The position numbers and the translations under genes are program-made. From Candidatus Binatia bacterium (lineage in GTDB: Bacteria; Desulfobacterota; Binatia; UBA9968), in assembly GCA_036407055.1 (NCBI GenBank), contig DASWZY010000128.1, positions 1 to 59,070 on the forward strand: 59,070 nucleotides of DNA, in the 5' to 3' direction. Under the pieces are notes generated by a model. That model was not told the DNA's origin, did not search any database, and saw nothing but the letters and a program-made list of their open reading frames with translations. This document shows, piece by piece, positions 6,791-53,198 of this stretch. The first letter of the stretch is position 1. Each line of letters starts with the position of its first letter.

Positions 6791-6806
6791 TCCGATGGGA
6801 GTCACC

Positions 6807-9466: not shown

Positions 9467-9761
9467 CGGTGAAGCGAACGCGTCCATTGCCCTTGCTGCG
9501 CCGCTGTGCGACCGAATCGCCGTCTTGTTTTCCGACAAGCTCCATATCGAAGTGCCTTCGCTGGAGACGGACCTGATGGAAAGCGGCATACTCGACTCTC
9601 TCACGCTCGTCGAGCTGCTGTTTCACATCGAGCAGGAGCTGGGGTTTAAGATTTCGCTGGAAGTGGTCGATCTCGATCACTTTCGCTCGATCGCACGCAT
9701 CGCCGATTTTCTCATGTCTCGTAACGGCTCCCATCGGAACGGCGGCGACAAGACAATCTGA
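9447..9761 (+). CDS. Acyl/peptidyl carrier protein
   Basis: 104 aa. Phosphopantetheine-attachment motif GILDSLTLVELL. Overlaps the adenylation gene by 20 nt. Confidence 0.8.
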   Translation: MKPLPRDGEANASIALAAPLCDRIAVLFSDKLHIEVPSLETDLMESGILDSLTLVELLFHIEQELGFKISLEVVDLDHFRSIARIADFLMSRNGSHRNGGDKTI

Positions 9762-9765
9762 AGAA

Positions 9766-10956
9766 ATGGGTATTGTCAGGACATTCGTCGAGGAAGACAT
9801 CCCGCGAGTCGCCGAGCTGCATCGGAAAGTCTTTCAGACCGGCGATGCTCCGTCCCTCGATCTTCAACGCGCCTATCGATCTTACTTGACGCGTATTTTT
9901 CTGCGCCATCCGTGGCGCGACCAAAGCGGCATCACCTCGCTCGTGTTCGAGGAGAATTCCGGCGAGATCGCCGGCTTTCTCGGCGTCGTGCCGCGGCCCA
10001 TGTCGTTCAACGGAAGGCCCGTCCGCGCGGCCGTCAGCTCCCAGTTTATCGTCGACCCCGCCCGGCGCTCCACGCTCGCGGCGGTCAAACTGCTCCAAGC
10101 ATTCATCAGCGGCCCGCAGGATCTCTCGATCGCGGATGAGGCGAACGATGCGTCGCGAAAGCTTCTCGAATCGCTCGGCGGCAGCACGGCTCTCCTCTAC
10201 AGCCTCTACTGGTTCCGCATCTTGCAGCCGGCGCGCTTTCTGCTTTCGCGCGCCGGCGCCGGTATGCCGCGGAGCGTCGCACGCGTGCTGCTGCCGGCTT
10301 GCCGACTTATCGACGCCGTGACCGTCCGGCTCCCGCGCAGTCCCCTGCGCCGGTCGGAGCCTTCCGTCACGGGCGTCGATCTCGGCACTGCGCATCTGCT
10401 TGAGTGTCTCTCCCGCGTGCCGCGACGCTGCGCGCTGCGGCCGGAGTACACCGAGCGCTCGCTCGACTGGCTTTTGAGCGTGATCGCGCGCAATCACGAG
10501 TGGGGAGACCTGCGCAAGGTTGCAGTACGCAATGACCGCGGGGAGATCGCCGGCTGGTACATCTACATCGTGGCGCCGAACGGCCTCGGCGAGGTTTTGC
10601 AGATCGGCGCGGATGAGAGGACGATCAAGCTGGTTCTCGACCATCTCTTCGATCACGCGGCGCGCCACGGCGCGTCGGCGCTCTCCGGCCGATTCGAGCC
10701 GAGCTTCGTACAGCAATTCCACGAGAAGTATTCGATGTTCCACCATCGCGGGCATTGGCTGCTGGTTCATTCGAACGACCCCGAGCTGGCGCAGACAATC
10801 CACCGCGGAGACGCCTTTTTGACGCGCTTAGAGGGCGAATGGAGCATGCGGTTCCGGCTTATGGCGCAATGGCCGACACCCCGGCACCGTAAAATTCGCA
10901 TCTCTTACCGCGAGGTCCCGCCGGTTCCACTCGACGTGGCGCGGTCGGCCTCGTAA
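9766..10956 (+). CDS. GNAT-superfamily N-acyltransferase of about 400 aa (Eis-like length)
   Basis: N-terminus IVRTFVEEDIPRVAELHRKVF and GEIAGFLGVVPRP resemble a GNAT core. The C-terminal two thirds are unassigned. Confidence 0.55.
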   Translation: MGIVRTFVEEDIPRVAELHRKVFQTGDAPSLDLQRAYRSYLTRIFLRHPWRDQSGITSLVFEENSGEIAGFLGVVPRPMSFNGRPVRAAVSSQFIVDPARRSTLAAVKLLQAFISGPQDLSIADEANDASRKLLESLGGSTALLYSLYWFRILQPARFLLSRAGAGMPRSVARVLLPACRLIDAVTVRLPRSPLRRSEPSVTGVDLGTAHLLECLSRVPRRCALRPEYTERSLDWLLSVIARNHEWGDLRKVAVRNDRGEIAGWYIYIVAPNGLGEVLQIGADERTIKLVLDHLFDHAARHGASALSGRFEPSFVQQFHEKYSMFHHRGHWLLVHSNDPELAQTIHRGDAFLTRLEGEWSMRFRLMAQWPTPRHRKIRISYREVPPVPLDVARSAS

Positions 10957-10974
10957 CTGAGCCCAGGAGCAAGG

Positions 10975-12741
10975 ATGAATATTATCGGCATCAGCGGCTT
11001 GGAAAACTCCATGGCGTTTAAGCGCCGGCAGTGGCCCGGCCTTGAGGAGCGCGAGTACCGCATGTCGCAGGGATACGACGCCGCCGCGGCGCTGATCGTC
11101 GACGGAGCGCTGGTCGCCGCGGCGGCCGAGGAGCGCTTCAATCGCAAAAAACACAGCGGCGATTTTCCGCGCCAGGCGATCGAATATTGTCTCGCCGAGG
11201 CCGGTATCGAGCTCGACGAAGTCGACGAAATCGCCCATGCGTTCGATTACACGCCTTTCGCCGCGGCGTACTCGGTCGATCCCGTCGGTGCGGCATGTTA
11301 TCGCGAAGTCTATTCCAAAGAAGCGCTGTTAAAATCGGTCGAGCGCCACCTCACAGGCTTTCCGCTCGCGCGCGTGCAGTCGGTCAACCATCACCTGTCG
11401 CACGCGGCAAGCGCGTATTTCACCTCGGGCTGGGAGGAATGTCTCGTCGTCGTGATCGACGGCATGGGGGAAGCGCACAGCGCCTCCGTTTATCGCGCCG
11501 CCGCGGACCGCATGGAGCGCATCCACCAGATTTCCGCCGCCAACTCGATCGGCATTCTATACTCGCTGATCACGTTTCATCTCGGCTTCGATTTCAACGC
11601 GGACGAATACAAGATCATGGGGCTCGCCCCTTATGGAGACCCGGAGAGGTTCCGCTCGTTTTTCGAGCAAACCGTGCTGTTGGGCGAAGACGGCTCGATT
11701 CTTATTCCCATCTTGAAGCTAAACCGGACCCGCGACGAGCGCGAGAACCATCTGCGCACGCGCGAATACCTCGAACGCGAGCTGGTCGCCGCCCGCGATC
11801 CCGAAGCCGAGATCACGGACGCGCATCGAGACGTTGCCGCCGCGCTTCAAGCGTGTCTCGATCGCACCATGCTTCACTTGTGCGGCTATTTCGGGAGAAA
11901 GATGGGTCTCAAGCGCCTCGCGCTCGCCGGCGGCGTGGCCCTCAACTGCACGGCGAACGGCCGGCTACTCTCCTCCGGGCTGTTCGACGATATTTACGTT
12001 CAGCCGGCCGCCGGCGACGACGGCGCGGCGCTCGGCGCCGCGCTTTATCGCGCGTCTGTCAATGGAAAAGTATCCAACGAACGGATCGCGACGCCGTTTT
12101 ACGGACCCGCGCACGGCGCGGCTGACATCGACGAGGCGCTCGCGCGCTTCACCGACCGCATCGAGGCGGTTCGCTTCGCGAGCCTGGACGAAACTTGCCG
12201 GGAAGCCGCGCGGCTGATCGCCGACGGCGGGGTCATCGCGTGGTACCGCGGGCGGATGGAGTTCGGGCCGCGCGCGCTGGGGCACCGTAGCATTCTCGCC
12301 GATCCCGGGCACCCGGAGATGCGCGACCGCATCAACGCGATGGTGAAAATGCGCGAAGCGTTTCGGCCGTTCGCGCCCGCTGTGACCCTCGAACAGGTCC
12401 ACCATTGGTTCGAAGTCGCGCCCATGACCGAGCTGCCCTACATGATCATGACCGTCGACGTGCGCCGGCGCTACCGGCCGGAATTGCCGGCGATCACGCA
12501 TGTGAACGGCTCGGCGCGCGTGCAAACCGTGTCGCGCACGGATAATGCGGATTTTCATTCGCTCCTCACCGCCGTCGGACTGACCACCGGGCGCGAGATG
12601 GTCCTGAACACGAGCTTTAACGTCAAAGGGCAGCCGATCGTCAATTCGCCCGCCGAAGCGCTCGAAACTTTCCTTGGCACAGGAATAGATTTTCTCTTCC
12701 TGGACAACACGCTCGTGCGGCGCCGTCGGGAACCGGCATAA
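10975..12741 (+). CDS. NodU/CmcH-family carbamoyltransferase
   Basis: MNIIGISG...YDAAAALIVDGALVAAAAEERFNRKKH, VNHHLSHAASAYF, LALAGGVALNC, GPRALGHRSILADP, NTSFNVKGQPIV. Confidence 0.9.
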   Translation: MNIIGISGLENSMAFKRRQWPGLEEREYRMSQGYDAAAALIVDGALVAAAAEERFNRKKHSGDFPRQAIEYCLAEAGIELDEVDEIAHAFDYTPFAAAYSVDPVGAACYREVYSKEALLKSVERHLTGFPLARVQSVNHHLSHAASAYFTSGWEECLVVVIDGMGEAHSASVYRAAADRMERIHQISAANSIGILYSLITFHLGFDFNADEYKIMGLAPYGDPERFRSFFEQTVLLGEDGSILIPILKLNRTRDERENHLRTREYLERELVAARDPEAEITDAHRDVAAALQACLDRTMLHLCGYFGRKMGLKRLALAGGVALNCTANGRLLSSGLFDDIYVQPAAGDDGAALGAALYRASVNGKVSNERIATPFYGPAHGAADIDEALARFTDRIEAVRFASLDETCREAARLIADGGVIAWYRGRMEFGPRALGHRSILADPGHPEMRDRINAMVKMREAFRPFAPAVTLEQVHHWFEVAPMTELPYMIMTVDVRRRYRPELPAITHVNGSARVQTVSRTDNADFHSLLTAVGLTTGREMVLNTSFNVKGQPIVNSPAEALETFLGTGIDFLFLDNTLVRRRREPA

Positions 12742-15003: not shown

Positions 15004-16480
15004 GCCTGCGCTTCTGCTGATGGGCGGAAGGATGGTGGCTTTTGCCGCGACATTCTTCATTCCAGTCGTCCTGGTGCGAGTTTTCGACCAGACCGAATTC
15101 GGCACCTACAAGCAGCTATTCCTCGTTTACGCGACTCTCTTCGGCATCTTGCAATTCGGCATGGCGGAGAGCCTTTACTACTTCCTACCCCTTGGCCACC
15201 GGAAAGGCGGACGCTACACCGCGAATGCGTTGGTCTCTTTGGCCGGCGCCGGCATCGTAGGTCTCGCGCTTGTCGTATGGAAGGCGCCGCTCATCGCCAG
15301 CTGGCTCGGCAACGGCGCGCTGGCCGCGTACCTGCCGGCTTTGGGAGTGTATGTTCTGTTGAGCGTCCTCTCGGTCACGCTCGAGATCATCATGACTTCG
15401 CGCCAGCAGTTTTTTACAACGGCCGCAAGCTACGCGATCTCCGAAATCGTTCGCGCCGCCGCTTTCATCGTACCGGTACTGCTGACACGCCAGCTCGAAT
15501 GGCTGCTGGTAGGGGTGATCGCATTTGCGGCCGCCCGCCTGGCTGCGACGGTGATTTACGTGTTCCACGAATTCGGCCGAGACGTTTTTCCCCACGCCGC
15601 AGCGTTGAGAGAACAACTTGTTTATGCGCTGCCGTTCTTCGGATCCAGCCTCCTGGCGGACTGGGCGTCGCAGTTTCATCAATATGCCGTTTCGCACTAC
15701 TTCGACACGGCGACGTTTGCGATTTATGCGGTCGGCTGCATGAATATTCCACTCGTCGAGCTGGTTCACAGCCCCGTCGGCAATGTCATGATGGTCAGGA
15801 TGGCCGAATACGTGAAAGACCGCGACGACGACGCCGTGCTCGCGATCTGGAACGACACGACGAGGAAGCTCGCGCTGGTTTTCTTCCCCATGCTCGGATT
15901 CCTCCTGGTCAGCGCCCGTGAAGTGATCGTGTTTCTTTTCACCAGCAATTACCTCGCCAGCGTCCCGATATTCATGATCTGGTCGATCAGCGTCCTGCTG
16001 CCGGTGCTGCAGACCGACGCCGTACTGCGCGTCTATGCCGAAACCCGATTTTTGCTCTACGCCTCCGCCTTTAAACTCGCGGCAAGCGTCGTCTTCATTC
16101 TCGCTTTCATACGACTGTTCGATGTGTGGGGCGCGGCTCTCATCACGCTGATCGTATCGTTTGCAACCAAATTTATCTGCGTCGCGCGATTTAAGCACAT
16201 CGCTAAGGTCACGCTTCCGGAGCTTCTGCCGTGGAAAAGCCTGGCGGCGAACGCCGGCGTGACTGCGGCGGCGTACGCGGTGACACTTTTGATCAAATCG
16301 CAACTGCAGGCCCGCACGCTTGTGATTCTCATGGTCACGGGGACCGTGTTCGGTGTCACGTATGCCATTCTGGCGCTATTGGCGGGAGTTATATCCAGCG
16401 ACGAACGGCAGGCGCTCGTCGACTCGTTGCAGCGCATCCCGGTGCGCCTGGCAAAAGTCGGCGCACTGCTGAAAGATTAG
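14987..16480 (+). CDS. MOP/Wzx-type polysaccharide flippase
   Basis: About 12-14 TM helices across roughly 497 aa. N-terminus MNSTFKPALLLMGGRMVAFAATFFIPVVLVRVF is typical of polysaccharide-biosynthesis (Wzx) proteins. Start set to ATG 14987, because the 14723-14986 part of the ORF lies inside the deacetylase gene. Confidence 0.75.
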   Translation: MNSTFKPALLLMGGRMVAFAATFFIPVVLVRVFDQTEFGTYKQLFLVYATLFGILQFGMAESLYYFLPLGHRKGGRYTANALVSLAGAGIVGLALVVWKAPLIASWLGNGALAAYLPALGVYVLLSVLSVTLEIIMTSRQQFFTTAASYAISEIVRAAAFIVPVLLTRQLEWLLVGVIAFAAARLAATVIYVFHEFGRDVFPHAAALREQLVYALPFFGSSLLADWASQFHQYAVSHYFDTATFAIYAVGCMNIPLVELVHSPVGNVMMVRMAEYVKDRDDDAVLAIWNDTTRKLALVFFPMLGFLLVSAREVIVFLFTSNYLASVPIFMIWSISVLLPVLQTDAVLRVYAETRFLLYASAFKLAASVVFILAFIRLFDVWGAALITLIVSFATKFICVARFKHIAKVTLPELLPWKSLAANAGVTAAAYAVTLLIKSQLQARTLVILMVTGTVFGVTYAILALLAGVISSDERQALVDSLQRIPVRLAKVGALLKD

Positions 16481-16494
16481 ACCGAGACACCTCC

Positions 16495-18402
16495 ATGTGC
16501 GGCATTGCGGGAATTTTCAGCTTCGGCGACGCGCCGGTCGAGGAAACGGAGCTTCGGCGTATGTGCGCCGCGATCGTCCACCGCGGCCCCGACGACGACG
16601 GCTTTTACTTCGGAGCGCGCGTCGGCTTGGGCATGCGGCGGCTGAGCATCATCGATCTTGCCACCGGACATCAACCGGTGCGCAACGAAGACGGCTCGGT
16701 GTGGGTTGTCTTTAACGGGGAGATCTACAATTTCAGAGACCTCCGCCTCGATCTCCAAAGGCGCGGGCACGCCTTTTACACCTCGACGGACACCGAAGTC
16801 ATCGCGCACCTGTATGAGGAATACGGCGAGCACTGTGTCGAGCCGATGCGCGGCATGTTCACCTTCGCGATCTGGGATGCCCGCCGCGAGACTTTGCTAT
16901 TAGGCCGCGACCGCCTGGGCGTGAAGCCGCTGTACTACGCCGAGACCGGCGGCCGGCTGGTTTTTGCATCGGAGCTGAAATCGATACTGGAACTGCCCGA
17001 TATCGAGCGGCGGCTCAGCGCGCGCGCATTGAGCGCGCTTTTGACGTCGCAGTGTACGCCATCCGACCAAAGCATCGTCGAAGATGTGAAGAAGCTGGAG
17101 CCGGGGCACGTCTTGATTGCTGCGCCGCACCGCAAGCCCGTCGTCCGACACTACTGGGACGTGCGCTTCGAGCCCGAAACCGGCCGGAGCGAAGCCTACT
17201 TCGTCGAAAAACTGCGCGAGCTTTTAACCGAATCGGTGCGTTTGCGGCTCGTCAGCGACGTCCCGCTGGGTGCGTTCTTGAGCGGCGGCATCGATTCGAG
17301 CTCGGTCGTCGCGACGATGGCGAAACTCGTCGCGTCACCGGTCAAGACATTTTCCATCGGCTTCAAGGAAAATCGCTACAACGAGCTCGATCACGCGCGC
17401 GCCGTCAGCAAACAATTCGGCACCGAACATCACGAGTTAATTCTCGAGCCCGACGCTCTATCGGTCCTCGACAGTATCATCTGGCATCTCGACGAGCCCC
17501 TGGGGGACGCCTCGTGTATTCCGACGTACATGGTGTCGAAGCTCGCGTCGCAGCACGTCAAGGTCGCGCTCTCGGGCGACGGCGGGGACGAGATCTTCGC
17601 CGGCTACAGCCACTATATCGACGAGGCGGGCGAGCGAAGAATCCATGTGCCTACACCGTTGCGAAAAGTGCTCCGGGGCGCCGCCAAATTGATGCCGATA
17701 GGCATGACGGGGAGAAACTACGTCTATCACTACTCGCTCGACGGCACCGAGCGCTACCTCGATTGGCTTACGCTTTTTCCGCAGGACGATAAAAAGTCGC
17801 TGTTTCAGCCGGAGATCCTCGAGATGATCGGCGCTTTCGTTCCGCTGGAATGGGAGCGCGAAGCGCTCCGCCGCGCCGGCAACGACTGGCTTTCCGGCGC
17901 TCAGTATCTCGATATTCACCGATACTTGCCGCTCGACATCCTCGTGAAGGTCGATCGGATGAGCATGGCGCATTCTATCGAGGCGCGCGAGCCGCTGCTC
18001 GATCATAAACTCGTCGAATTCGCCGCGACGATTCCGGCCGAGCTGAGGCTCAGGGGCGGAACGACGAAGTACATCTTCAAGCAGGCGATGCGCGGCATTC
18101 TGCCCGACGCGATCATCGACCGGCCGAAGCAGGGGTTCGGCGTGCCGCTCGAGCACTGGTTTCGCGGCCGTCTCTCGAGCTTCGTCCGCGATCTCCTGCT
18201 GTCGCGGCGCAGCCGCGAGCGCGGCATCTTCAACCCCGCGCATATCGAGAAGCTTTTGAGAATCCACGAAAGCGGCCGCCGCCGCGATACGGAGCTTTGG
18301 CTGCTGATTTCCATCGAGCTGTGGTGCCGGACCTTTCTTGACGTTTCCGCCGCCTCCACGGCAGCGACAAGAATGAGAGAGCCCATTCGAATAACCGCCT
18401 GA
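16495..18402 (+). CDS. Asparagine-synthase-like glutamine amidotransferase (copy 1)
   Basis: Ntn Cys start MCGIAG. PP-loop FLSGGIDSSSVVA. Long AsnB-type C-terminus. The ORF upstream of 16495 overlaps the flippase. Confidence 0.9.
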   Translation: MCGIAGIFSFGDAPVEETELRRMCAAIVHRGPDDDGFYFGARVGLGMRRLSIIDLATGHQPVRNEDGSVWVVFNGEIYNFRDLRLDLQRRGHAFYTSTDTEVIAHLYEEYGEHCVEPMRGMFTFAIWDARRETLLLGRDRLGVKPLYYAETGGRLVFASELKSILELPDIERRLSARALSALLTSQCTPSDQSIVEDVKKLEPGHVLIAAPHRKPVVRHYWDVRFEPETGRSEAYFVEKLRELLTESVRLRLVSDVPLGAFLSGGIDSSSVVATMAKLVASPVKTFSIGFKENRYNELDHARAVSKQFGTEHHELILEPDALSVLDSIIWHLDEPLGDASCIPTYMVSKLASQHVKVALSGDGGDEIFAGYSHYIDEAGERRIHVPTPLRKVLRGAAKLMPIGMTGRNYVYHYSLDGTERYLDWLTLFPQDDKKSLFQPEILEMIGAFVPLEWEREALRRAGNDWLSGAQYLDIHRYLPLDILVKVDRMSMAHSIEAREPLLDHKLVEFAATIPAELRLRGGTTKYIFKQAMRGILPDAIIDRPKQGFGVPLEHWFRGRLSSFVRDLLLSRRSRERGIFNPAHIEKLLRIHESGRRRDTELWLLISIELWCRTFLDVSAASTAATRMREPIRITA

Positions 18403-18440: not shown

Positions 18441-19346
18441 ATGTATACCGTCGAACACTTGGCCAATATTCGATTGTACGAGCTCGAGCGAGTTTCCCCC
18501 TATGTACGCAAAGGCTCGAAAGTTCTTGAAATCGGCGCCGGCATGGGCTTGCAGGCCAAACAATTGAGCGAACTGGGCGTCCGCGTCACGGCGATCGACG
18601 TTCCCTCCAGCTTTTACAAACCCGACCAAATATGGCCCGTCATCGAATACGATGGCGTCCATATTCCGTTCCCCGATGATTATTTCGACGTGGTCTTCAG
18701 TTCGAATGTTCTGGAACACATTCCCCACGTTCTGTCATTTCAAGCCGAATTGCAGCGCGTGCTGAAGCCCGACGGTATCGCGATCCATATTTTGCCGTCG
18801 GCGTGTTGGCGGATTGCCAGCACCATCGCTCATTACGCATGGGTTGTAGACGGCGCGTTCAAGCACTTCTTAAAGCGCAGATCGACTTTCGAAATCGAAG
18901 AAGCCGGTAATCCACGCAGCGAGCCTGCGAACAACAAACCGCGCCTAATCAGGACTCTCATCGCGCCCGAAAGACATGGAGAGTTCGGCAACACGATCAC
19001 GGAAATGTATTATTTCAGCAAATTTCGCTGGAACCGTTTATTCAATGCAACAGGATGGACGATCGAAGAGCATTCTTCGAATCGATTGTTTTATACCGGC
19101 TATTGTATCTTGGGTTTGAAGCTGTCGATCCGCGCGCGCCGCCTTTTGAGCTATGTCTTCGGCAGCGCGTGTCATGTGTTTATATTGAGAAAAGCTCCGG
19201 CGCCGGCGTTTGCCGCGGAGCGCGTCGCCGACTCAGGCGCAGACCGCCGCACCGTGGCGGCCCTTATCAAGGCCGTTGTCCCCTTATACTGCTTCGCGTC
19301 TCAGCTTTGCGACTTCTCGATACTTTCTGACTTCCAGATATTATGA
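18441..19346 (+). CDS. Class I SAM-dependent methyltransferase
   Basis: Motif I KVLEIGAGMGLQA, FDVVFSSNVLEHIP, LKPDGIAIHILP. GGAGGT Shine-Dalgarno (SD) sequence upstream. Visibly more AT-rich than its neighbours. Confidence 0.8.
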   Translation: MYTVEHLANIRLYELERVSPYVRKGSKVLEIGAGMGLQAKQLSELGVRVTAIDVPSSFYKPDQIWPVIEYDGVHIPFPDDYFDVVFSSNVLEHIPHVLSFQAELQRVLKPDGIAIHILPSACWRIASTIAHYAWVVDGAFKHFLKRRSTFEIEEAGNPRSEPANNKPRLIRTLIAPERHGEFGNTITEMYYFSKFRWNRLFNATGWTIEEHSSNRLFYTGYCILGLKLSIRARRLLSYVFGSACHVFILRKAPAPAFAAERVADSGADRRTVAALIKAVVPLYCFASQLCDFSILSDFQIL

Positions 19347-20761
19347 TCAGCCGCGTTCACCGGCGGTGGCTGCTGATACTTGTCGCCGCATTATCCCTGC
19401 CGGTTCTCGGCCGTGCAGATTCTTTTCCCGGCGGCTTTATCGAAAAGGCGGACACCAAAGTCGTCCGCCCGCGCTTGACGGCATCGCAGATAGCGTCCTT
19501 TGTCCCCTCCAATCGCGGCAAATTTCGCTTTCCCCCGCCGTATAACACGGAGGCGATCCGCATCACGACGGCGGCCGACTGCGGCGGCAAAGATTGCGTC
19601 GCGCACGTCGGCTATTCGTACTGGATGAACATCAACAATCACGTCGGCAGCGATACGATGCTGATTTTTCTTGGCCTGGACCGCCGTTACGGCGGCACCG
19701 GGCCGACTCTTTTCAGCTACAACAAACTTACCGACGAAGTAAAGAATCTCGGCCCGCTCTTCGACGGCGGGAGCCGTCTCAGCTGGCGCGGCGGGCTTGA
19801 CTGGTATTTCAGCGCGCGCCAGCCGACCAAGCTATACGTGAACGACGAAGACGCGCGCCTGTACCGCTACGATGTCCGAACCAAGTCACTCGAGACCGTC
19901 TTCGACGCAGCTCCGCGATTTGGAAGGGACAAAGATATAACGCAACCGCACTCCAGCAACGACGACCGGGTTCACTCCGCGACGCTCCGCTGTAAAAGAT
20001 CCGGCTGCACCGACGGAACGCATACGGCTGTCGGCGATGAGGACATGCTCGGTTGTCTTGTGTACAACGAAGGCAAGCACGAATTTTCCAATTATCCACG
20101 GAAACAAAAGTTCGACGAATGCCAGATCGACGCCAGCGGCCGCTGGCTAATCATTCTGGAAAAAGTTCAGGCGGCGGAGCCCGACAGCATCGATAACGTG
20201 ATCATCGATCTCGAGACGGGAAAGCAGCGGACGATTTTATCCAACCAGAACAAAGTCTCCGGCGCCGCTCACGGAGCCATAAGCCATCTCGATCTCGGTT
20301 ACGGTTACATGATCGGAGCCGACAACAGTTACCGCCTGGGTAACGCGAAAGTTCTTTATAAATTCGCTGAGGATCCGCTGCAGGGAAAGCTGGTTTACTA
20401 CAATGGCGATTGGAACGCGCCCGCACCGAACCATATCAGCAACCGCAACAGCGGGTCTGACGTCCCACCGGAGCAGCAATACGCGTGCGGGAGCGGCGCA
20501 AGCAAGAACAACGGCCCGCGGGCGAACGAGATCGTTTGTTTCACTCTGAACGGTTCGTTGGATGTGCTCGTTGTCGCGCCGGTGATGACCGATTTGAACG
20601 TTTCGTCGCGATGCGACGACTACTGCTTGCAGCCAAAAGGGAATCTGGACGTGACCGGCCGTTACTTCATTTGGACGACCAATACGGGCGGCCAAAGACT
20701 CGATGCGTTCATGGTGAAAGTTCCCGGACAGCTTCTCTCTTCTCACAGAGCGTCCCGCTGA
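19343..20761 (+). CDS. Secreted protein of unknown function; paralogue of the N-terminal ~440 aa of the 36392-38944 protein
   Basis: Signal peptide MISRVHRRWLLILVAALSLPVLGRA. Shares long strings with the 850-aa protein: FPGGFIEK, VGYSYW, NNHVGSDTM, NLGPLFDG, QPTKLYVN, DECQID.SGRWL, LDVLVVAPVMTD, PKGNLD.TG.YFIWT. ATGA overlap with the upstream gene. Confidence 0.7.
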   Translation: MISRVHRRWLLILVAALSLPVLGRADSFPGGFIEKADTKVVRPRLTASQIASFVPSNRGKFRFPPPYNTEAIRITTAADCGGKDCVAHVGYSYWMNINNHVGSDTMLIFLGLDRRYGGTGPTLFSYNKLTDEVKNLGPLFDGGSRLSWRGGLDWYFSARQPTKLYVNDEDARLYRYDVRTKSLETVFDAAPRFGRDKDITQPHSSNDDRVHSATLRCKRSGCTDGTHTAVGDEDMLGCLVYNEGKHEFSNYPRKQKFDECQIDASGRWLIILEKVQAAEPDSIDNVIIDLETGKQRTILSNQNKVSGAAHGAISHLDLGYGYMIGADNSYRLGNAKVLYKFAEDPLQGKLVYYNGDWNAPAPNHISNRNSGSDVPPEQQYACGSGASKNNGPRANEIVCFTLNGSLDVLVVAPVMTDLNVSSRCDDYCLQPKGNLDVTGRYFIWTTNTGGQRLDAFMVKVPGQLLSSHRASR

Positions 20762-20788: not shown

Positions 20789-21901
20789 ATGAATTCACCG
20801 GCCTTGGCTCTTAAAAGCGGCCTCGCTGTGAGGCCGCACGCGCGCGTCAAAGTCGCGCTTGTCGCCGGCAGTCTCGATATCGTCGGCGGCCAGGAGGTGC
20901 AGGCGAGCGTACTACGCGAGCGCTTCCGGCAGCAAGGACACGGAGTCGATTTTGTTCCCATCAACCCGCGTTTTCCGCGCGCCGCCGGATGGCTCCGGCG
21001 CGTGCCGTATCTGAGAACGGTCTTGAACGAGGCGCTTTATATCCCCACGCTCGCCCGGCTCCGGCGAGCGGACGTCGTGCACGTCTTCTCCGCTTCGTAC
21101 TGGTCTTTTCTTCTCGCCCCTGCACCGGCGCTACTCACCGCGAAGGTCTTCGGCAAGCGTGTGGTCTTGAACTATCACAGCGGCGAGGCGGCCGATCATC
21201 TTAGCCGCTGGGGCATCCTCGTCCATCCGTTTCTGAAGCTCGCCGATGAGATCGTCGTGCCATCGGAATACTTGAAGGAAATCTTTGCCCGCCATGGCTA
21301 TCGCGTGCGCGTCATACGAAACGTCGTCGACACTTCGAACTTTCGCTTTCGCGAGCGCAGGCCCCTGCGGCCGCGGCTGCTGTCGACGCGCAATCTCGAG
21401 CCGATTTACCGCGTCGACAACACTCTGCGCGCCTTTGCGCTTTTACGCTCGCGCAATCCCGAAGCCACTTTGACCATCGCCGGCAGCGGCAGCGAAGAGC
21501 AGCGGCTCCGCCGACAAGCGGCGCCGTTCGCCGGCTCCGTCCGATTCGCCGGACGCGTCGAGCCGGCTTCGATGCCGCGCATTTACGACGAAGCCGATAT
21601 TTTCGTGAATTCATCGGTAGTGGACAACCAGCCGCTGTCGGTCCTGGAGGCATTTGCGGCCGGCCTCCCCGTCGTATCCACGCCAACGGGCGAGCTCGCC
21701 ACAATGGTGCGCGAGGGTGACACGGGTTCGATCGTCCCGGCGAAAAATCCAGAAGCAATGGCCGCAGCCATAGCGCGCCTGCTTGCCGAAGCCGACGGCA
21801 CGCTCGCAATGGCGCGCCGCGCGCGCGCCGAAGTCGAGAAATACACGTGGCCGGCTGTTCACCGGAAATGGCTCGCCGCGTATTCGGGTGTCGCAGCATG
21901 A
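20789..21901 (+). CDS. GT4 (GT-B) glycosyltransferase
   Basis: GGQEVQASVL N-terminal region and EAFAAGLPVVSTPTGELATMVREGDTGSIV (E-x7-E). Confidence 0.85.
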   Translation: MNSPALALKSGLAVRPHARVKVALVAGSLDIVGGQEVQASVLRERFRQQGHGVDFVPINPRFPRAAGWLRRVPYLRTVLNEALYIPTLARLRRADVVHVFSASYWSFLLAPAPALLTAKVFGKRVVLNYHSGEAADHLSRWGILVHPFLKLADEIVVPSEYLKEIFARHGYRVRVIRNVVDTSNFRFRERRPLRPRLLSTRNLEPIYRVDNTLRAFALLRSRNPEATLTIAGSGSEEQRLRRQAAPFAGSVRFAGRVEPASMPRIYDEADIFVNSSVVDNQPLSVLEAFAAGLPVVSTPTGELATMVREGDTGSIVPAKNPEAMAAAIARLLAEADGTLAMARRARAEVEKYTWPAVHRKWLAAYSGVAA

Positions 21902-24093
21902 AATTGCATCGGCTGAAGAGCATGGGGCTCGGGGAAATCGCCTACCGCAGTCGACAAGAAGCGAACAAGATATTCGAGCGCGTCGGCGGTATTGGCAACG
22001 GCCGCGCCGCCGGACATCTCTTGAAGAAATCCCTCGCCCAAGACACGCTGCGAGAATTGCGCGGCGGTTCAAACGGCGACTTCCACGCGCTCGCGCGCGC
22101 TCTCCGCGAGCGTTTTCAGACTTCCGGCGCGAAGCGGTTTTTCGCCGGAGCCACCGATTCGCGATCGGTGCCATTGCTGCGGCAACACGCGCCGGAGGCG
22201 TGCGCTACGATCATTGCGGCGGCTGACAACGTGCTGGCAGGCCGTTTCAGGCTCCTGGGATACGACGATCTTTATTTCGGCGATCCCGTCCACTGGCGGC
22301 TCGACCCGATCTCCGGCCGCAGAAGCCCGCTTACGCATTGGAGCCGCATCGACCACCTCGATTTCGCCGCAGTCGGTGACCACAAGGTCGTGTGGGAATT
22401 GAACCGCCAACAATGGATGATCGTTCTCGGCCAGGCTTGCCGGCTTACGGGCGACGAAAAGTATGCGCGCGGTTTCGCCGGCTATCTGGGTCAGTGGCTG
22501 AGGGCGAACCCCGCGGGTTTCGGCATCAATTGGGCGAGCAGCCTCGAAGCGGCGCTGCGTATAATTTCCTGGACATGGGCGCTCTACTTATTGCGCGACT
22601 CCGCGACGCTCTCCCCCGAGCTCTACGTCCGCTTGCTGGAATGCATCTCACTGCACGCAACGCACGTGGAAAAATATTTGTCGTACTACTTCGCTCCGAA
22701 TACGCATCTTACCGGCGAGGCGCTCGGCTTGTTCTACGCCGGCGTTGTATTTCCCGAGCTTCAATCGGCGCGCCGCTGGCGCGATCTCGGCGCACGCATC
22801 TTGATTGATCAAAGCGAGCGGCAGATCCTGGCCGATGGCGTCTACTTCGAGCAGTCCACTTGCTATCAACGCTATACCGCGGAGATCTATCTTCATTTTC
22901 TTCTTCTTGCGCGCCGCAGCGGAATTTGCGTGCCTGCGGTCGTCGAAGAACGCCTCCGGCGCCTTCTCGACGTCCTCCTCGTATTCCAGCGGCCGGACGG
23001 CTGTCTGCCCGACATCGGCGACGCGGACGGCGGCTGGCTACTGCCTTTCACGTCGCGGGCTCCCAGCGATTGCCGCGGCGTCCTCGCCGTCGCAGCGCGG
23101 CTCTTCGACTGCGCCGATTACGCCTGGGCCGCGAGCGATCCGGTCCCTGAAAGCATCTGGCTTCTCGGCGCGGTACGGCACCGCTCCGCGATAACGCCTG
23201 CTTCACCTCCGATCACCCGCGAGACAATGGCTTATGCGTGCGGCGGCTATGTCGTGATGCGCAGCGACTGGGCCCGCACTGCGCACCAGATGATCTTCGA
23301 CGTCGGCCCGCTGAGCTCGCCCAAGAGCGGCCACGGGCACGCCGATCTCCTGAGTGTGCAGTGCTCGGCTTTCGGCGAGCCCTTCCTCCTCGACGCGGGG
23401 ACCTACTGCTATACATCCGAGCCCGAATGGCGGGATTTCTTTCGCGGCACGGCGGCGCATAATACGGCGACGGTCGACGGTGAAAACCAAGCCCGCACTG
23501 CGGGGCCGTTTGGCTGGGATCATCATCCGCGCGCCCGCCTGCGCCGCTGCGTCTCGACCGCGGAGTACGTATTGGCCGACGCGGACCATGACGCCTACGC
23601 ATGGCTCGCCGATCCGGTGATCCACCGTCGCCGCGTCGTGTTCGTGAAAGACCGCTACTGGTTCGTCGTCGACGACTTCCTGGGCACCGCGAAACACCGG
23701 ATCGACGTGCGGTTTCAATTCGCGCCAATGAGTGTGACCATGGAAGCCGAGAACTGGATACGCGCACGGGGCAAGTCCAGCCACGGCCTGCTCCTTCGAA
23801 CCTTCGCTAGCAGCCCGATCGAGGTCGCCGTTGCCGAAGGAAGCACGGCGCCGATTCAGGGCTGGATCTCCCCCGATTATGGCCGGCGCACCCCAGCGCC
23901 GGTCGTAAGTTGCTCCGCAGAAACGTCTCTGCCGCTAAGAATCATGACCATCCTTCTGCCATGCGAGGACGCCGCGGCGCCGCTTCCGTCGGTGACTCCC
24001 ATTCACGAGAAGCCGGCAGGCATCATGGGTGCGCGATTTGCCGATGAAGACAGCACGGTGATTATCGACGACGACGCGGTCCGCCTGAAATAA
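21898..24093 (+). CDS. Heparinase II/III-like (alginate-lyase superfamily) protein; no signal peptide visible
   Basis: DHKVVWELNRQQWMIVLGQACRLTGDEKYA, INWASSLEAALRIISW, GVYFEQSTCYQRY, HGHADLLS...GTYCY...HNT. ATG 21898 forms an ATGA overlap with the GT4 stop. Confidence 0.75.
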   Translation: MKLHRLKSMGLGEIAYRSRQEANKIFERVGGIGNGRAAGHLLKKSLAQDTLRELRGGSNGDFHALARALRERFQTSGAKRFFAGATDSRSVPLLRQHAPEACATIIAAADNVLAGRFRLLGYDDLYFGDPVHWRLDPISGRRSPLTHWSRIDHLDFAAVGDHKVVWELNRQQWMIVLGQACRLTGDEKYARGFAGYLGQWLRANPAGFGINWASSLEAALRIISWTWALYLLRDSATLSPELYVRLLECISLHATHVEKYLSYYFAPNTHLTGEALGLFYAGVVFPELQSARRWRDLGARILIDQSERQILADGVYFEQSTCYQRYTAEIYLHFLLLARRSGICVPAVVEERLRRLLDVLLVFQRPDGCLPDIGDADGGWLLPFTSRAPSDCRGVLAVAARLFDCADYAWAASDPVPESIWLLGAVRHRSAITPASPPITRETMAYACGGYVVMRSDWARTAHQMIFDVGPLSSPKSGHGHADLLSVQCSAFGEPFLLDAGTYCYTSEPEWRDFFRGTAAHNTATVDGENQARTAGPFGWDHHPRARLRRCVSTAEYVLADADHDAYAWLADPVIHRRRVVFVKDRYWFVVDDFLGTAKHRIDVRFQFAPMSVTMEAENWIRARGKSSHGLLLRTFASSPIEVAVAEGSTAPIQGWISPDYGRRTPAPVVSCSAETSLPLRIMTILLPCEDAAAPLPSVTPIHEKPAGIMGARFADEDSTVIIDDDAVRLK

Positions 24094-25933: not shown

Positions 25934-27643
25934 ATGGAGCATCAAAATGCCGATCGCCTGGCGGCGCCCGTCGGGCGAGATATCTCCGTAGACGAGCCCG
26001 GCGTGAGAGGACGCACGGCGTGGCTGCGCAGCTACGGTTTGTTGATCGCTTTATACGCCGTGATAACCGCGGCGACCGGTGCGGCTTTCATGGGCGATAC
26101 CATCGGCTATGCCGACAGCATCCTGGAATCGAAATTCTTCGAGTTCGGGCATCTGCTCTGGTTCTTTATTGGCTGGCTCGCTTCTATGGCTCTCGCGCCC
26201 TTTACCGGCCTCGAGCCGCGCCTGAACATCATTTTCGCGCTCGTCGCGGTTAATTGGGCGGCCGGATTGCTGAGCGTGGTTCTCTTATACAGCCTAGCCC
26301 GGAACATTGCGGAACGGGAATGGCCGGCGATTTGCGCTACGATCGGGTTCATTTTCTCCCAAGCGTTTCTTGACCTCGCGCACAGTGGATGCGCGTATAT
26401 CCCCGGCCTGTCGCTTCTCCTGCTCGGTCTTTGGCTGCTGTTTCGCGCCGAAGAGCAGCCCCGGCACGCTACGCGATACGCGATTCTGACCGGCGCGGCT
26501 TTTGCGACCACCGTCGCCTTATGGTTCCCTTACGTAACGGCCGTTCCCGGCGCTCTTCTGGCGACGCTCCTGTTGTTCGGATTTAACCGCCCAAGGCTTT
26601 CTTTCATCATTCGGACCGCAGTCGCATGCGGCTGCATCGCCCTGATTATCTACGGAACAGCTGCGCTGCTTCAGGGCATCTACACGCTGGGCGGCTTCAT
26701 GGACTGGGTCCATTCGTCATCCCACGGCATTACCGACAAGGGCAACTTGCCGCGATTGCTTTTCGGTATTCCGCGCTCGTTTACGTTCACGGGCCGCGAC
26801 GGCTCGATGTTCAAACGATTCTTGTATCACGATCCTTACAATCCGGTTTCCCTTTTCGACTTGTTCCAGGGAACGCTGGCGAAACTGCTTCTCTTCTACT
26901 TCCTAGCAGTCGCCACCGCCGTCGTCCTGGTACGATCCGATCGAGGACGTCGCCTGCTCGCTTTCCTTGTGCTCAGCACAGCCCCCCTGCTCGCACTGGC
27001 TCTGCTGTGGGAGGCAGGAGCGATCGAAAGATACTTGCCTCTCTACCCCGCGCTGTTCATTTCGTTGTCGTATGCTTTGAGTCGACGCACGAGATTTTTT
27101 CTCTACGAGATATTGGTCGGAGTCTGGATCGCCATGAACATCATAGTGAACACCAGCGCGCTGGCCAACTCGACGCTGGCAGCGCGCCAGCAGCGAGTGG
27201 CTGGTCGGGTGGAGCCATTGCAGCCGCTATTGAAGCCGCACAGCGTAATCGCGACTTTGAGTCAGCTCGACGAGCTGTGGGCGTTTCCCTGGGACTTTCC
27301 GTTTCATCCCATCAATCAAAAACAATCGCTACCAACGTATCATGTTCAGGAGCCCGGCACGACACAGATTCCCGTGTGGAGGCAGAACTTCGCCGCTAAG
27401 GCACGAGCCGTGTGGAGCGCCGGCGGCGACGTCTGGGTATCGAAGAGGCTGCTTGCCCCAAAACCGAAAGCCGAGTGGAACTGGGTCGAAGGAGACGACA
27501 GCCGAATTACCTGGCGCGATATCTACGATTACTTTTCAGAGTTCGAGTACGGTCAAGCTCTAGGCGGCGAAGACGGTTTCGTACTTCTCCGACAGTCGGC
27601 GAACAATGAGACATTACTCGCCCGATCTGACTCGGGCGCATGA
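25934..27643 (+). CDS. Polytopic membrane protein of unassigned family (GT-C-like topology), tandem copy A
   Basis: About 12 hydrophobic helices followed by a soluble tail of about 170 aa. Acidic MGDT..YAD just after TM1. Clear paralogue of 27731-29461. Confidence 0.6.
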   Translation: MEHQNADRLAAPVGRDISVDEPGVRGRTAWLRSYGLLIALYAVITAATGAAFMGDTIGYADSILESKFFEFGHLLWFFIGWLASMALAPFTGLEPRLNIIFALVAVNWAAGLLSVVLLYSLARNIAEREWPAICATIGFIFSQAFLDLAHSGCAYIPGLSLLLLGLWLLFRAEEQPRHATRYAILTGAAFATTVALWFPYVTAVPGALLATLLLFGFNRPRLSFIIRTAVACGCIALIIYGTAALLQGIYTLGGFMDWVHSSSHGITDKGNLPRLLFGIPRSFTFTGRDGSMFKRFLYHDPYNPVSLFDLFQGTLAKLLLFYFLAVATAVVLVRSDRGRRLLAFLVLSTAPLLALALLWEAGAIERYLPLYPALFISLSYALSRRTRFFLYEILVGVWIAMNIIVNTSALANSTLAARQQRVAGRVEPLQPLLKPHSVIATLSQLDELWAFPWDFPFHPINQKQSLPTYHVQEPGTTQIPVWRQNFAAKARAVWSAGGDVWVSKRLLAPKPKAEWNWVEGDDSRITWRDIYDYFSEFEYGQALGGEDGFVLLRQSANNETLLARSDSGA

Positions 27644-27730: not shown

Positions 27731-29461
27731 ATGACTAACCCGATGAGAGACTCCACGCAAGTCATTGCTGCCGCACGCCGTCGCCCTTTTAAAATCGCGG
27801 CCGTCGGCCCTATCGTCGCCTGGCTCCGCAGCTACGGAAGAATTGCTGCGCTCTATATTGCCGCGACATTCTTCACCGGCGCCATCTCCATGGGCGATAC
27901 CGACCATTACGCCGAATTCATCAGGACTTCCCAGGTGTGGGATTTCGGCCACCTGTTGTGGATTGTGCTCGCGTGGAGCGTATCGAGAACGCTGCAGCCG
28001 TTCACCAGTTTTACGCCGCTCAACAATGCGATTTTCACGATGATGACACTTAGCTGGCTGGCGGGACTGCTGAGCGTGCTTTTGCTCTACGACAGCACGC
28101 GCCGAATCGCCAAACAGAGCTGGGTGCCTGAATTCGTGGCCATCGGTTTGATCTTCAGCCACGCTTTTCTCAATTACGCGCAAACCGGGTGTTCGTATGT
28201 CCCAGGCCTGTCGATGGCGCTGCTGGGTCTTTGGCTTCTTATTCGAGAAGAGGACATAGCCGAGCACTCGAGAGCGAGCGGCATCGGCGCAGGCTTTGCG
28301 TTCGCCGCGGCAGTAGGCTTTTGGGTGCCTTACATCTTCGCCATGCCGGGTCTAACGGTCTCTACGATGATTCTCTTCGGCGTAAGCCGCTGGCGGTTGT
28401 TCCAGTTCGCCCGCGTAGTGTTGTCTTTCGGGATATTTTGCTTAACCCTGTACGGCGGCGCCTGCATGCTTCATGGAATCTACGATCTTGAAGGATTCAG
28501 ACAATGGGCGATCGCCCCCGGAATGATGACCCAGATCAGCGGCTTTAATCGGATGGTTTTTGGCTTCGCGAGGTCCTTCTTCAACATGGCAACGGATGGC
28601 GTGCTTTATAAACGGTATCTGCTTCACGACCCCTACAATCCGGTTTCTTTTCTCGAATTGCTCCGCCTCAGCCTGGGGAAGCTTCTTTTCTTCTACGCGG
28701 CGTTCGGCGTTTGGATTTTCGCGCTATTCACCTCTCGCGCCGGCAGGCGATTCACGGAGCTTTTCATCGCTTGCGCCGTTCCCGTCATGCTCTTCGCGTA
28801 CAGCTGGCAGGGGGGCGATACGGAACGGTACTTTCCGCTGTATCCAGCGATCTTCTTAATGCTGACCTATGCTGTGTCGGAAGGACGGCTGATCGTCTGG
28901 AGTCGTGTTCTCGCGGCTATATGGGTGTTCGGCATGATGTATACCAACGGCGCCGCGTTGTCGAATACGAAAATACGCGCCGTCCACGACCGGTCGATCG
29001 CCAGGATCAAAGACCTCCAGCCTTTGTGGAAACCGCACAGTCGAATCGCGACCGTGTTGATCCAAGACGATGTATTCCGTTTTGCATCCGACTATCCATT
29101 CGATCCCTTAAGCACGACGGGCATGTTGGCGTACGACTCCGAGCTCCGACTTCCCGCGGCGATCGACATCATCGATCGAGGCAGCGCCGACACACCGAAA
29201 TGGCGGGAAAAGTTCGCGCAGCTGACGCTCCAGGCCTGGTCTGTCGAAGGCGATCTGTGGGTAAGCAAGCGCGTTTTTAACGACCGTCCGCCGCGTGCCG
29301 AAACGCACTGGGTCGAAGGAGACGATCCACGCGTCACGTGGCGCGACGTCTACGAATACTTTTTGCAATTCGACTACGGCCGAGCCGTAGGCGGAAATGA
29401 CGGCTTCGTTCTTCTCGCCAGGTCTCCGAAAAACAAGCGTTTGCTCGACGGCCTCGACTAA
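27731..29461 (+). CDS. Polytopic membrane protein of unassigned family (GT-C-like topology), tandem copy B
   Basis: Same architecture as copy A. Shared strings: AWLRSYG, FGHLLW, HDPYNPVS, ERY.PLYPA.F, W.SKR, WVEGDD.R.TWRD.Y.YF..F.YG.A.GG.DGFVLL. Confidence 0.6.
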   Translation: MTNPMRDSTQVIAAARRRPFKIAAVGPIVAWLRSYGRIAALYIAATFFTGAISMGDTDHYAEFIRTSQVWDFGHLLWIVLAWSVSRTLQPFTSFTPLNNAIFTMMTLSWLAGLLSVLLLYDSTRRIAKQSWVPEFVAIGLIFSHAFLNYAQTGCSYVPGLSMALLGLWLLIREEDIAEHSRASGIGAGFAFAAAVGFWVPYIFAMPGLTVSTMILFGVSRWRLFQFARVVLSFGIFCLTLYGGACMLHGIYDLEGFRQWAIAPGMMTQISGFNRMVFGFARSFFNMATDGVLYKRYLLHDPYNPVSFLELLRLSLGKLLFFYAAFGVWIFALFTSRAGRRFTELFIACAVPVMLFAYSWQGGDTERYFPLYPAIFLMLTYAVSEGRLIVWSRVLAAIWVFGMMYTNGAALSNTKIRAVHDRSIARIKDLQPLWKPHSRIATVLIQDDVFRFASDYPFDPLSTTGMLAYDSELRLPAAIDIIDRGSADTPKWREKFAQLTLQAWSVEGDLWVSKRVFNDRPPRAETHWVEGDDPRVTWRDVYEYFLQFDYGRAVGGNDGFVLLARSPKNKRLLDGLD

Positions 29462-51400: not shown

Positions 51401-51402
51401 AG

Positions 51403-52011
51403 TCAATGCCCGCGAGCCAATGGCGAAAAGTCGGCCGTTAACCGTTCGGAACGGCGGCGGCGCTCCGGCGCCTTGCCTGGCTCATCGTTATCGTAAATAC
51501 GGATGCCGTCGAGACGCTCGAGCCGCTTCAATGGCGCGATCAGATGGCGCGACAGCGCCTCCTGAATTTCGCTTCCCGGCAGGCTCGATTCGCAGAGATG
51601 ATCGATCTCGCCGGAGACCAGCTCGATTCGCTCGACGGCGCAGACTTTTTTATTGCCGTTGCCGTTACCGCGCTCCCGCAGGTAGCTGTAAATCACCTCG
51701 AGCGGATAGCGTGCGCCGACAACCTCGACGAACGCCGGGTCCTCCACCTCGATGCGAGCGAGACAAAGACGGCGGTCGACTGGGACCATGTCATGCGCGT
51801 CGGCGAGGCCGGCCGGAGACCTGCCACCGGGCGCTTCGCGCGCCGCATGCCTAACGGCATCGGCGGCGCAAGCGAGCTCGTGCCATGCATAAACATGGTC
51901 GTAAACATCCTCTAAGGTGGAAAGCACTTCGATGACGTCGCGCACCTCGCTGCAGCGATGATGCGGCAGCGCTATGCGAATCGACATATGGGTATCGTCT
52001 TGATGATTCAT
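51403..52011 (-). CDS. Hypothetical protein (202 aa), no recognisable family
   Basis: GGGGTGA SD 5 nt upstream of ATG 52011. Stop lies 2 nt before the Ku ATG. Contains a GNGNGN stretch and a basic tail. Confidence 0.5.
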   Translation of the reverse strand: MNHQDDTHMSIRIALPHHRCSEVRDVIEVLSTLEDVYDHVYAWHELACAADAVRHAAREAPGGRSPAGLADAHDMVPVDRRLCLARIEVEDPAFVEVVGARYPLEVIYSYLRERGNGNGNKKVCAVERIELVSGEIDHLCESSLPGSEIQEALSRHLIAPLKRLERLDGIRIYDNDEPGKAPERRRRSERLTADFSPLARGH

Positions 52012-52023
52012 GCTTCACCCCGC

Positions 52024-52569: not shown

Positions 52570-52654
52570 TTCCTCCCCTTTCATCCTCCACATTTAGATG
52601 TAGCATTTTTATCCACCCGTCATAGACTCCAGGACACAGGCTGGATCCACGCCG

Positions 52655-53152: not shown

Positions 53153-53198
53153 AACGATACTCTCCTCTCAATCCCAGGCGGCGGATTTAGCTGTACGC

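Follow-up and report, generated by a model that had tools for sequence, protein, structure and literature searches.

Exopolysaccharide (EPS) systems typically include a dedicated exported glycanase. AlgL, PslG, the hydrolase domain of PelA, BcsZ, and ExoK/ExsH are such enzymes, and their folds are (α/α) toroids, TIM barrels, and those of GH8 and GH16. Vibrio cholerae Bap1 and RbmC, encoded beside the vps genes, are secreted matrix proteins that combine a propeller with a lectin-type β-sandwich, and their propellers are eight-bladed, repeat-rich, and calcium-binding. The oligogalacturonate lyases of polysaccharide lyase (PL) family 22, represented by YeOGL (3PE7) and VPA0088 (3C5M), are reportedly cytoplasmic; their active site is said to comprise R217, H242, H287, Q350, H353, and H355, with a Mn2+ site at H287/Q350/H353/H355 and H242 as the base. 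The present analysis concerns a 59,070-nucleotide stretch from a Candidatus Binatia bacterium (GenBank assembly GCA_036407055.1, contig DASWZY010000128.1, positions 1 to 59,070 of the forward strand; hereafter the window), which encodes two copies of a β-propeller module predicted to be secreted. The module belongs to a large, widespread family without annotation, and across taxa its genes mostly lie in or beside EPS biosynthetic loci. It is proposed to be an extracytoplasmic glycan-processing enzyme that acts on a uronic-acid exopolysaccharide, a reading to which we assign a probability of roughly 45%.

The two copies are laid out as follows.

19343-20761, forward strand: short copy, 472 amino acids (HEY1266898.1, "hypothetical protein"), a predicted signal peptide and then the β-propeller module alone
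19343-19417, forward strand: predicted signal peptide of the short copy, residues 1-25 (sequence and hydropathy scan)
36392-38944, reverse strand: whole open reading frame of the long copy, 850 amino acids
37559-38944, reverse strand: N-terminal part of the long copy, a predicted signal peptide (residues 1-31) and the β-propeller module (residues ~32-462)

A sequence-only reading of the window had aligned the 472-residue protein by eye with the N-terminal part of the 850-residue protein, and BLASTP bears this out with 245 identities in 469 positions (52%), 65% positives, and an E-value of 3e-160, spanning residues 9-466 in the former and 14-462 in the latter. The likeness of the two copies is far beyond chance. 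All of the shared strings quoted in that reading are present in the BLASTP alignment, namely FPGGFIEK, VGYSYW.N.NNHVGSDTM.IFL, NLGPLFDG, QPTKLYVN, HSS.DD.VHSATLR, DECQID.SGRWL, LDVLVVAPVMTD, and DDYC..PKGNLD.TG.YFIWT. The ATGA overlap that it described between the short copy and the preceding methyltransferase gene (18441-19346) is seen at 19343-19346. Read from the sequence and the hydropathy scan, both leaders are basic-hydrophobic and end in a small-x-small motif of the AXA type, with cleavage-type motifs GRA/DS after residue 25 in the short copy and ATA/QF after residue 31 in the long copy.

Conservation was computed over 217 full-length, diverse family modules. Conservation reaches 97% or more at thirty positions and 90-97% at another 54, which gives 84 positions at or above 90%. 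Among them are H315 (98%), H211, H364, E259, D263, D317, D436, E396, and D454, the basic residues K128, K432, R42, R73, R175, and R452, as well as Y427 and many other tyrosines and tryptophans. H211, H315, and H364 are conserved at 95-98%, and H100 and H203 at 88-90%. Each window copy keeps 83 of the 84 positions, and therefore neither is degenerate. The six cysteines C80, C85, C238, C260, C382, and C399 are conserved at ≥92-97% and make up three pairs, in agreement with the conserved cysteine positions that had been noticed in the window proteins; the DDYC cysteine pair is common to the two window copies and is not family-wide. The leaders and the three family-conserved pairs support the periplasmic or extracellular placement suggested earlier. 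We infer that both copies are Sec-exported, and disulfide stabilization of both proteins is proposed on the same sequence features.

In a neighbor-joining tree, the short copy groups with in-operon Binatia forms (loci L024, L039, and L008), and L029 is the neighbor of the long copy. A second Binatia metagenome-assembled genome (MAG) supplies both L029 and L039, and one Verrucomicrobiia contig also has both arrangements. A recent local duplication is ruled out by the different sub-clades and by the same pair in the second Binatia MAG; the pair in the window is therefore old and maintained. On the sequence tree, the copies stand for two ancient sub-lineages, one with the short form inside the operon and the other with the long form convergent to it.

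The module was described earlier as lying outside any named family, and the database searches agree. Pfam and NCBIfam scans of the shared module gave only sub-threshold noise, including matches to DUF5122, CTHRC1, and Kelch that were dismissed as such. A PDB sequence search with a single protein and with the family profile returned no match at E≤10, and 39 aligned members scanned against Pfam at E≤10 showed no consistent family. The database names of family members are only "hypothetical", "LamG domain-containing", or "Ig-like domain-containing", and a literature search found no relevant description of a matching β-propeller lyase family or operon type. When 5.8 billion proteins were searched by word index, 1,625 matches (90% clusters) came back, and none of the best 120 has less than 50% identity. 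Among 1.84 billion 50%-identity representatives, an exhaustive comparison with the family profile finds 1,103 clusters at E≤1e-3, 874 at E≤1e-10, and 412 at E≤1e-30. The module is thus a member of a large, widespread family without annotation. A tblastn search of the module against 50,697 phage and 72,556 plasmid records gave no match.

In the GTDB species genomes, 229 confirmed places carry the module, and the locus-level results given here rest on the 78 loci returned among them. All 78 come from MAGs. They belong to Binatia, many Nitrospira, Rokubacteria/NC10, Verrucomicrobiia, the Acidobacteriota groups Vicinamibacterales, Thermoanaerobaculia, and Polarisedimenticolia, the Gammaproteobacteria groups Pseudohongiellaceae, Porticoccaceae, and Lysobacterales, and others. 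Identity to the window protein is 48-61% across phyla. Tandem arrays of two to three module genes, mostly bare propellers, occur in 9 of the 78 loci, with three copies in L040/L087, L059, and L081 and two in L044, L050, L061, L063, L070, and L075; their carriers are Nitrospiraceae, Natronospirales, Gammaproteobacteria, Vicinamibacterales, and Verrucomicrobiia.

The linkage of the family to polysaccharide genes was examined with the following window proteins as references.

35197-36411, forward strand: membrane GT2, synthase-like, with transmembrane segments; it resembles PgaC/IcaA, NodC, and BcsA models, all below cut-off, and PDB 6yv7 (4.5e-17)
32527-33939, forward strand: nucleotide-sugar 6-dehydrogenase, UDP-glucose dehydrogenase-like (Pfam/NCBIfam)
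29524-31431, forward strand: AsnB-type glutamine amidotransferase, with a second copy at 16231-18402
21847-24093, forward strand: heparinase II/III-like (PL12-like) protein, with no signal peptide or transmembrane segment

The 78 loci were searched with the window proteins; 58 have at least 5 kb downstream, and 41 have both flanks. The most conserved neighbor is a homologue of the GT2, which lies downstream on the opposite strand, convergent with the module gene, in 39 of the 58 loci. Where both flanks are available, the GT2 is found in 29 loci, the dehydrogenase in 23, AsnB in 22, and the heparinase-like gene in 17, and 33 of the 41 carry at least one of these four EPS markers. The sequence-only reading held that homologues not associated with polysaccharide loci would speak against it, and with an EPS marker in 33 of 41 loci its proposal stands. 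The linkage to the GT2 and the dehydrogenase spans at least six phyla. By these counts (39/58 and 33/41), the module is encoded in or beside an EPS biosynthetic locus across taxa. The dehydrogenase conserved alongside it implies that the polymer contains a uronic acid.

In independent contigs, precomputed annotation gives the order GT2, a protein of ~550 amino acids without assignment, dehydrogenase, GT4, heparinase-like protein, and AsnB, convergent on the module gene. From this shared gene order it follows that the long window copy has the common arrangement. The in-operon arrangement, with flippase, AsnB, in some cases a methyltransferase, module, GT4, and heparinase-like protein, is found only in a Binatia/Verrucomicrobia/Proteobacteria subgroup. 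An alternative context of GH47 and a major facilitator superfamily transporter, present in one Thermoanaerobaculia contig, does not recur elsewhere and was set aside; another non-EPS locus that was inspected gave nothing informative. The GT2 and the long propeller gene of the window share 20 bp tail to tail at 36392-36411. In L002, L007, and L087, an unannotated protein of ~530-555 amino acids is encoded between the dehydrogenase and the GT2.

A single large exopolysaccharide locus of the Wzx/Wzy type takes up the window from position 1 to about 45,000, and the genes beyond 45 kb are housekeeping. The products of the locus include a tyrosine-kinase ATPase, a priming phosphotransferase, a Wzy-like protein, a flippase, several GT4 and GT2 proteins, three methyltransferases, a carbamoyltransferase, GNAT/FemAB-like acyltransferases, an AMP-ligase, and a deacetylase, together with the two AsnB-type amidotransferases, the dehydrogenase, and the heparinase II/III-like protein listed above. 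Several of its genes resemble XrtA/PEP-CTERM-associated models with scores below the cut-offs. Since it has neither leader nor transmembrane segment, the PL12-like protein is predicted to be cytoplasmic, and therefore the two propeller proteins are the only evident soluble secreted proteins among the locus proteins covered by the leader and transmembrane scan. As a lyase-fold protein kept in the cytoplasm by a biosynthetic operon, the PL12-like protein might be an epimerase or an editing enzyme.

An AlphaFold2 model of the module, built with a 39-sequence alignment, is all-β, with a predicted local distance difference test score (pLDDT) of 90.3 and a predicted template-modeling score (pTM) of 0.89. 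From its strand list the model appears to have about seven four-stranded blades. A propeller-like fold had been suggested earlier from the repetitive β-rich pattern; the model and the Foldseek search, in which every listed match is a β-propeller, are in line with this. Against the PDB, ranks 1-3 are PL22 oligogalacturonate lyases (3C5M chains A and B, and 3PE7), with E-values of 1.0-1.4e-12, TM-scores of 0.57-0.58 by query and 0.69-0.71 by target, and 11-12% identity. The next matches are DPP-IV at 1e-9, TolB at 1e-8, and WD40 proteins at 1e-7. The innermost (A-) strand of every blade bears polar residues conserved at 90% or more, and on the model the abundant conserved His, Tyr, Arg, Lys, and aromatic residues would fit a single central site for an anionic glycan. 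Every element of the sequence-only reading that could be checked holds. It named lyase, hydrolase, epimerase, and lectin as candidate activities with no preference among them; lyase, the first of these, coincides with the best structural neighbor, and the evidence as a whole narrows the choice without settling it. In a library of predicted viral structures (BFVD), the best match is A0A8E5NQ64, an unnamed viral protein of 1,172 amino acids (E 4.7e-17, query TM-score 0.61, 14% identity); it matches the propeller better in structure than any PDB entry, and no sequence relative was found in the phage collection.

These structural matches raise the question of whether the module is a true, very divergent PL22 member, which would make it an oligo-uronate lyase dependent on Mn2+ and using a histidine as its base. 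By its Foldseek match, the model is a seven-bladed β-propeller superposable on 3PE7/3C5M, and the three best PDB structure matches are all PL22. Four or five of the family's histidines are highly conserved, glutamines are conserved as well, and a weak local profile match sets Q201-P-H203 on H353-P-H355 of YeOGL. The residue types R217, H242, H287, Q350, H353, and H355 were confirmed at those numbers in the 3PE7 sequence. That local match is out of register, however, as the best hhalign alignment pairs module blades 1-3 with PL22 blades 5-7, a shift of four blades. None of the 39 members matches the PL22 Pfam families PF14583 and PF26549 or PD40 at E≤10. Global and local hhalign comparison of 217 family sequences with 122 PL22 sequences reached a best probability of 6% (P 0.006, not significant), a value to be read with a shallow PL22 profile (effective sequence number about 2) that consists of the 3PE7 and 3C5M sequences and 120 proteins, all listed homologues at least 67% identical, and on which a deeper one might improve. 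If blades are taken in 1:1 order, the strand corresponding to the Q-x-x-H-x-H metal motif of PL22, the blade-7 inner strand, would read P-K-G-N-L-D, without histidine. PL22 proteins are 385-400 amino acids long, start with MAKG..., have no leader, and are reportedly confined to the cytoplasm, whereas both window proteins have leaders and the three conserved cysteine pairs. As neither the sequence relationship nor the lack of a leader is shared, the module is PL22-like in fold and not a PL22 member. Membership was thus rejected for want of a significant sequence or profile match and for the four-blade shift of the best local alignment, and a divergent Mn2+-dependent PL22 lyase is highly improbable.

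The remainder of the long copy consists of three accessory domains.

37229-37495, reverse strand: β-sandwich of the FN3/purple-acid-phosphatase-N type, about residues 484-572 (PF16656 4.8e-7 at 496-572; PF00041 weak)
36968-37174, reverse strand: Big_7 bacterial Ig domain, residues 591-659 (PF17957 2.3e-19)
36395-36907, reverse strand: C-terminal concanavalin-A (ConA)-like β-sandwich, residues 680-850, about 160-171 amino acids, with no Pfam match

A poly-proline linker, read from the sequence, precedes the FN3-type domain. The model of the ConA-like domain is a β-sandwich jelly-roll of the ConA-like superfamily (pLDDT 90.1), and its Foldseek matches are GH16 lichenases/glucanases (4e-7), the L-type lectin Emp47p, galectins, SPRY, and PL7. 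It recurs in 59 of 269 family proteins with one to three copies each and carries the motifs W..CDGC..EVRE..Y..GD..NG. As the C-terminal segment has no Pfam LamG match, it constitutes a new sequence family within the superfamily, and on the model it is likely a carbohydrate-binding module. Elsewhere in the family, the propeller is fused to LamG, Big_7, FN3, SLH, and Big_13 domains and, by precomputed Pfam annotation, to dockerin, DUF11, TSP3, and Calx-β. The sixteen unusual family architectures scanned contain no second catalytic domain. Non-catalytic fusion modules together with the ConA-like domain are the usual build of secreted carbohydrate-active enzymes.

The same domains are open to a second explanation, in which the propeller is a non-catalytic matrix protein or lectin that binds the EPS while Ig, FN3, and ConA-like modules link it to the surface or matrix, as Bap1/RbmC do for Vibrio polysaccharide. 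The protein is predicted to be secreted and is encoded beside EPS genes, its long forms carry adhesin-type modules (Big_7, FN3, DUF11, SLH, and LamG/ConA-like), its genes form tandem arrays of two to three, a common feature of adhesins, in 9 of 78 loci, and its catalytic residues are putative. Multivalent lectin propellers usually bear repeats, however, and self-alignment of the family profile found no internal blade repeats (P≥0.05; best off-diagonal P 0.053, probability 1%). In many members, the entire Nitrospira group among them, a tail of just 0-6 residues follows the bare propeller, which leaves it without a tethering module. The conservation pattern, very strong and asymmetric, puts His, Asp, Glu, Lys, and Arg on the inner strands, and no lectin or Bap1-type propeller is among the 50 best PDB matches. 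A matrix lectin is judged rather unlikely but is a serious rival.

The glycan-processing reading is built on the secreted candidates of the locus, the lack of internal repeats, and the conserved inner-strand residues, for which reasons a polymer-cleaving enzyme is favored, with β-elimination as the more likely chemistry. Within this reading, the narrower claim that the propeller is specifically a lyase is speculative and rather doubtful. The family is a conserved accessory of one EPS gene set, composed of the membrane GT2, the nucleotide-sugar dehydrogenase, GT4s, AsnB-type amidotransferases, and the cytoplasmic PL12-like protein, and this set would make a uronic-acid-containing, possibly amidated, polymer. 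The propeller would cleave or trim that polymer outside the cytoplasm, for its release, for chain-length control, for the clearing of misdirected polymer, or for dispersal. The mouth of the central channel would hold the substrate; there the innermost strands of the seven blades may present the near-invariant polar residues N98, Y155/S157, Q201/S204, E259, H315/D317, H364, and K432/D436, surrounded by the conserved aromatic and basic residues Y67, Y91, W94, Y165, Y427, W444, R42, R73, K128, and R452. Cleavage may proceed by β-elimination at a uronic acid, with a His/Tyr base-acid pair and with Arg/Lys or a metal neutralizing the charge; hydrolysis is the alternative. The short copy would be made with the biosynthetic operon. 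The long copy would be transcribed separately beside a two-component system, and its FN3, Big_7, and ConA-like modules may hold the propeller on the polymer or the cell surface.

Several points weigh against this proposal. Eight of the 41 loci with both flanks, mainly from Thermoanaerobaculia and Pseudohongiella, have none of the four EPS markers within 10 kb. Co-transcription with the operon is not general, because most family genes are convergent to it and not inside it. The profile comparison with PL22 does not exceed 6% and is shifted, and it gave no reliable pairing of the PL22 catalytic residues with residues of the module. β-Propellers are promiscuous in structure searches, and on the model PL22 leads the next matches by about three orders of magnitude in E-value at a query TM-score of 0.58. 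The residues placed at the channel mouth come from the strand order of the model and not from measured geometry. Furthermore, if AsnB amidates the uronic acid, classical β-elimination would be hindered.

The eight loci without EPS markers also bear on a third explanation, in which the module does not cut glycans at all and is instead a TolB-like export scaffold, a peptidase-associated or ligand-sensing domain, or an enzyme acting on an acyl, carbamoyl, or methyl substituent. TolB, DPP-IV, and S9 peptidase propellers are the next-best structural matches, the locus has many tailoring enzymes (carbamoyltransferase, GNATs, methyltransferases, AMP-ligase, and deacetylase), and two-component regulators flank the gene. 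On the other side, no member is fused to a peptidase or other catalytic domain, the accessory domains are of the carbohydrate-binding type, and the GT2/dehydrogenase linkage is kept across phyla. A role of this kind is quite improbable.

A two-component system adjoins the long copy.

39018-42261, forward strand: histidine kinase and response regulator, divergent from the long copy

The kinase has 781 amino acids, with a long N-terminal region without Pfam match, and is accompanied by a receiver protein. Next to the closest relatives of the long form, a histidine kinase homologue is encoded: in L011, L018, and L029 it is the direct upstream neighbor on the opposite strand, and in L050 it lies at a greater upstream distance. 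Two-component regulators are found directly upstream of or divergent from convergent-type module genes in several phyla; further sites are L002/L003 (7673-9112) and L087 (3076-4780), with a GerE-type and OmpR-type response-regulator pair. These adjoining regulators suggest a separate regulation of the secreted protein. Upstream in the operon of the short copy, the forward-strand genes at 6714-12741 encode a luciferase-like oxidoreductase, an AMP-ligase, a GNAT protein, and a carbamoyltransferase, and by their sequence annotation point to polymer decorations that may be acylated or carbamoylated; the syntenic locus L001 also has an acyl carrier protein gene. Polytopic membrane proteins of 520-576 amino acids, with 5-8 predicted transmembrane segments and no Pfam or NCBIfam match, are encoded on the forward strand at 25934-27643, 27731-29461, and 42265-43827. 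The first two are adjacent, have similar N-terminal motifs, and are probably paralogues. Such unannotated polytopic membrane proteins may be polymerases or enzymes of a GT-C-like type. Ku and LigD (ligase plus primase-polymerase), a bacterial nonhomologous end-joining pair at 50522-55558 on the reverse strand, are ordinary and unrelated.

The family is large, with more than 1,000 clusters at 50% identity, and unusually conserved at about 50% identity between phyla, yet it is without annotation. It marks a recurrent EPS gene set in bacteria that matter in the environment and are mostly uncultured, including nitrite-oxidizing Nitrospira, soil Acidobacteriota, Binatia, and Rokubacteria. The module is a credible candidate for a new carbohydrate-active family. 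In its fullest form, this would be a family of secreted seven-bladed β-propeller lyases or hydrolases, convergent with or anciently diverged from the PL22 scaffold, serving as the dedicated depolymerase of an undescribed uronic-acid (possibly glycosaminoglycan-like or uronamide) EPS system. At the core of that system would stand a minimal synthase-like GT2, together with a nucleotide-sugar dehydrogenase and a PL12-like protein in the cytoplasm. Horizontal transfer would have carried the system between uncultured lineages of Nitrospira, Acidobacteriota, Binatia, Rokubacteria, Verrucomicrobia, and marine Gammaproteobacteria. We hold this complete proposal only tentatively. If the module is an enzyme, it would found a new lyase or hydrolase family and provide a specific tool to dissect or disperse the biofilm matrix of its carriers, with relevance to wastewater nitrification, groundwater, and soils. 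Even without a function, the propeller and its ConA-like companion merit family models, which would tie thousands of "hypothetical proteins" to polysaccharide biology.

PL22: The module and the PL22 lyases share a single-domain seven-bladed β-propeller, being best structural matches, as well as conserved inner-strand histidines and a uronic-acid glycan as the substrate, on which PL22 acts and the module would act. In contrast, no sequence relationship is detectable, and the module exceeds PL22 in length by about 60-80 residues and has insertions as well as an additional segment at the N-terminus. The module is predicted to be exported and has conserved disulfide-type cysteine pairs, while PL22 enzymes are reportedly cytoplasmic. 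The genetic setting also differs, as the module gene lies in biosynthetic EPS loci and PL22 in pectin catabolic loci.

Bap1 and RbmC: As in these matrix proteins, a secreted propeller is combined with a lectin-type β-sandwich and encoded beside EPS genes. The module differs from them in having no internal repeats, and neither protein is among its top structural matches.

AlgL, PslG, PelA, BcsZ, and ExoK/ExsH: The module resembles these glycanases in its predicted Sec export and in being encoded in or beside the operon of its putative target polymer, and one of its copies is translationally coupled inside the operon. Their folds and families are entirely different from that of the module, whose activity is putative.

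PL11, PL24, PL25, PL42, and GH145: None of these families is among the 50 best PDB matches, and the module has no sequence match to any PDB chain. Nevertheless, they have in common with it a β-propeller scaffold used on uronic-acid glycans. PL24, PL25, and PL42 work by His/Tyr/Arg chemistry without a catalytic metal (for example, PMC8377490 and PMC6168547), and such metal-free chemistry would fit H315, Y427, R452, and K432 of the module better than the PL22 metal site does.

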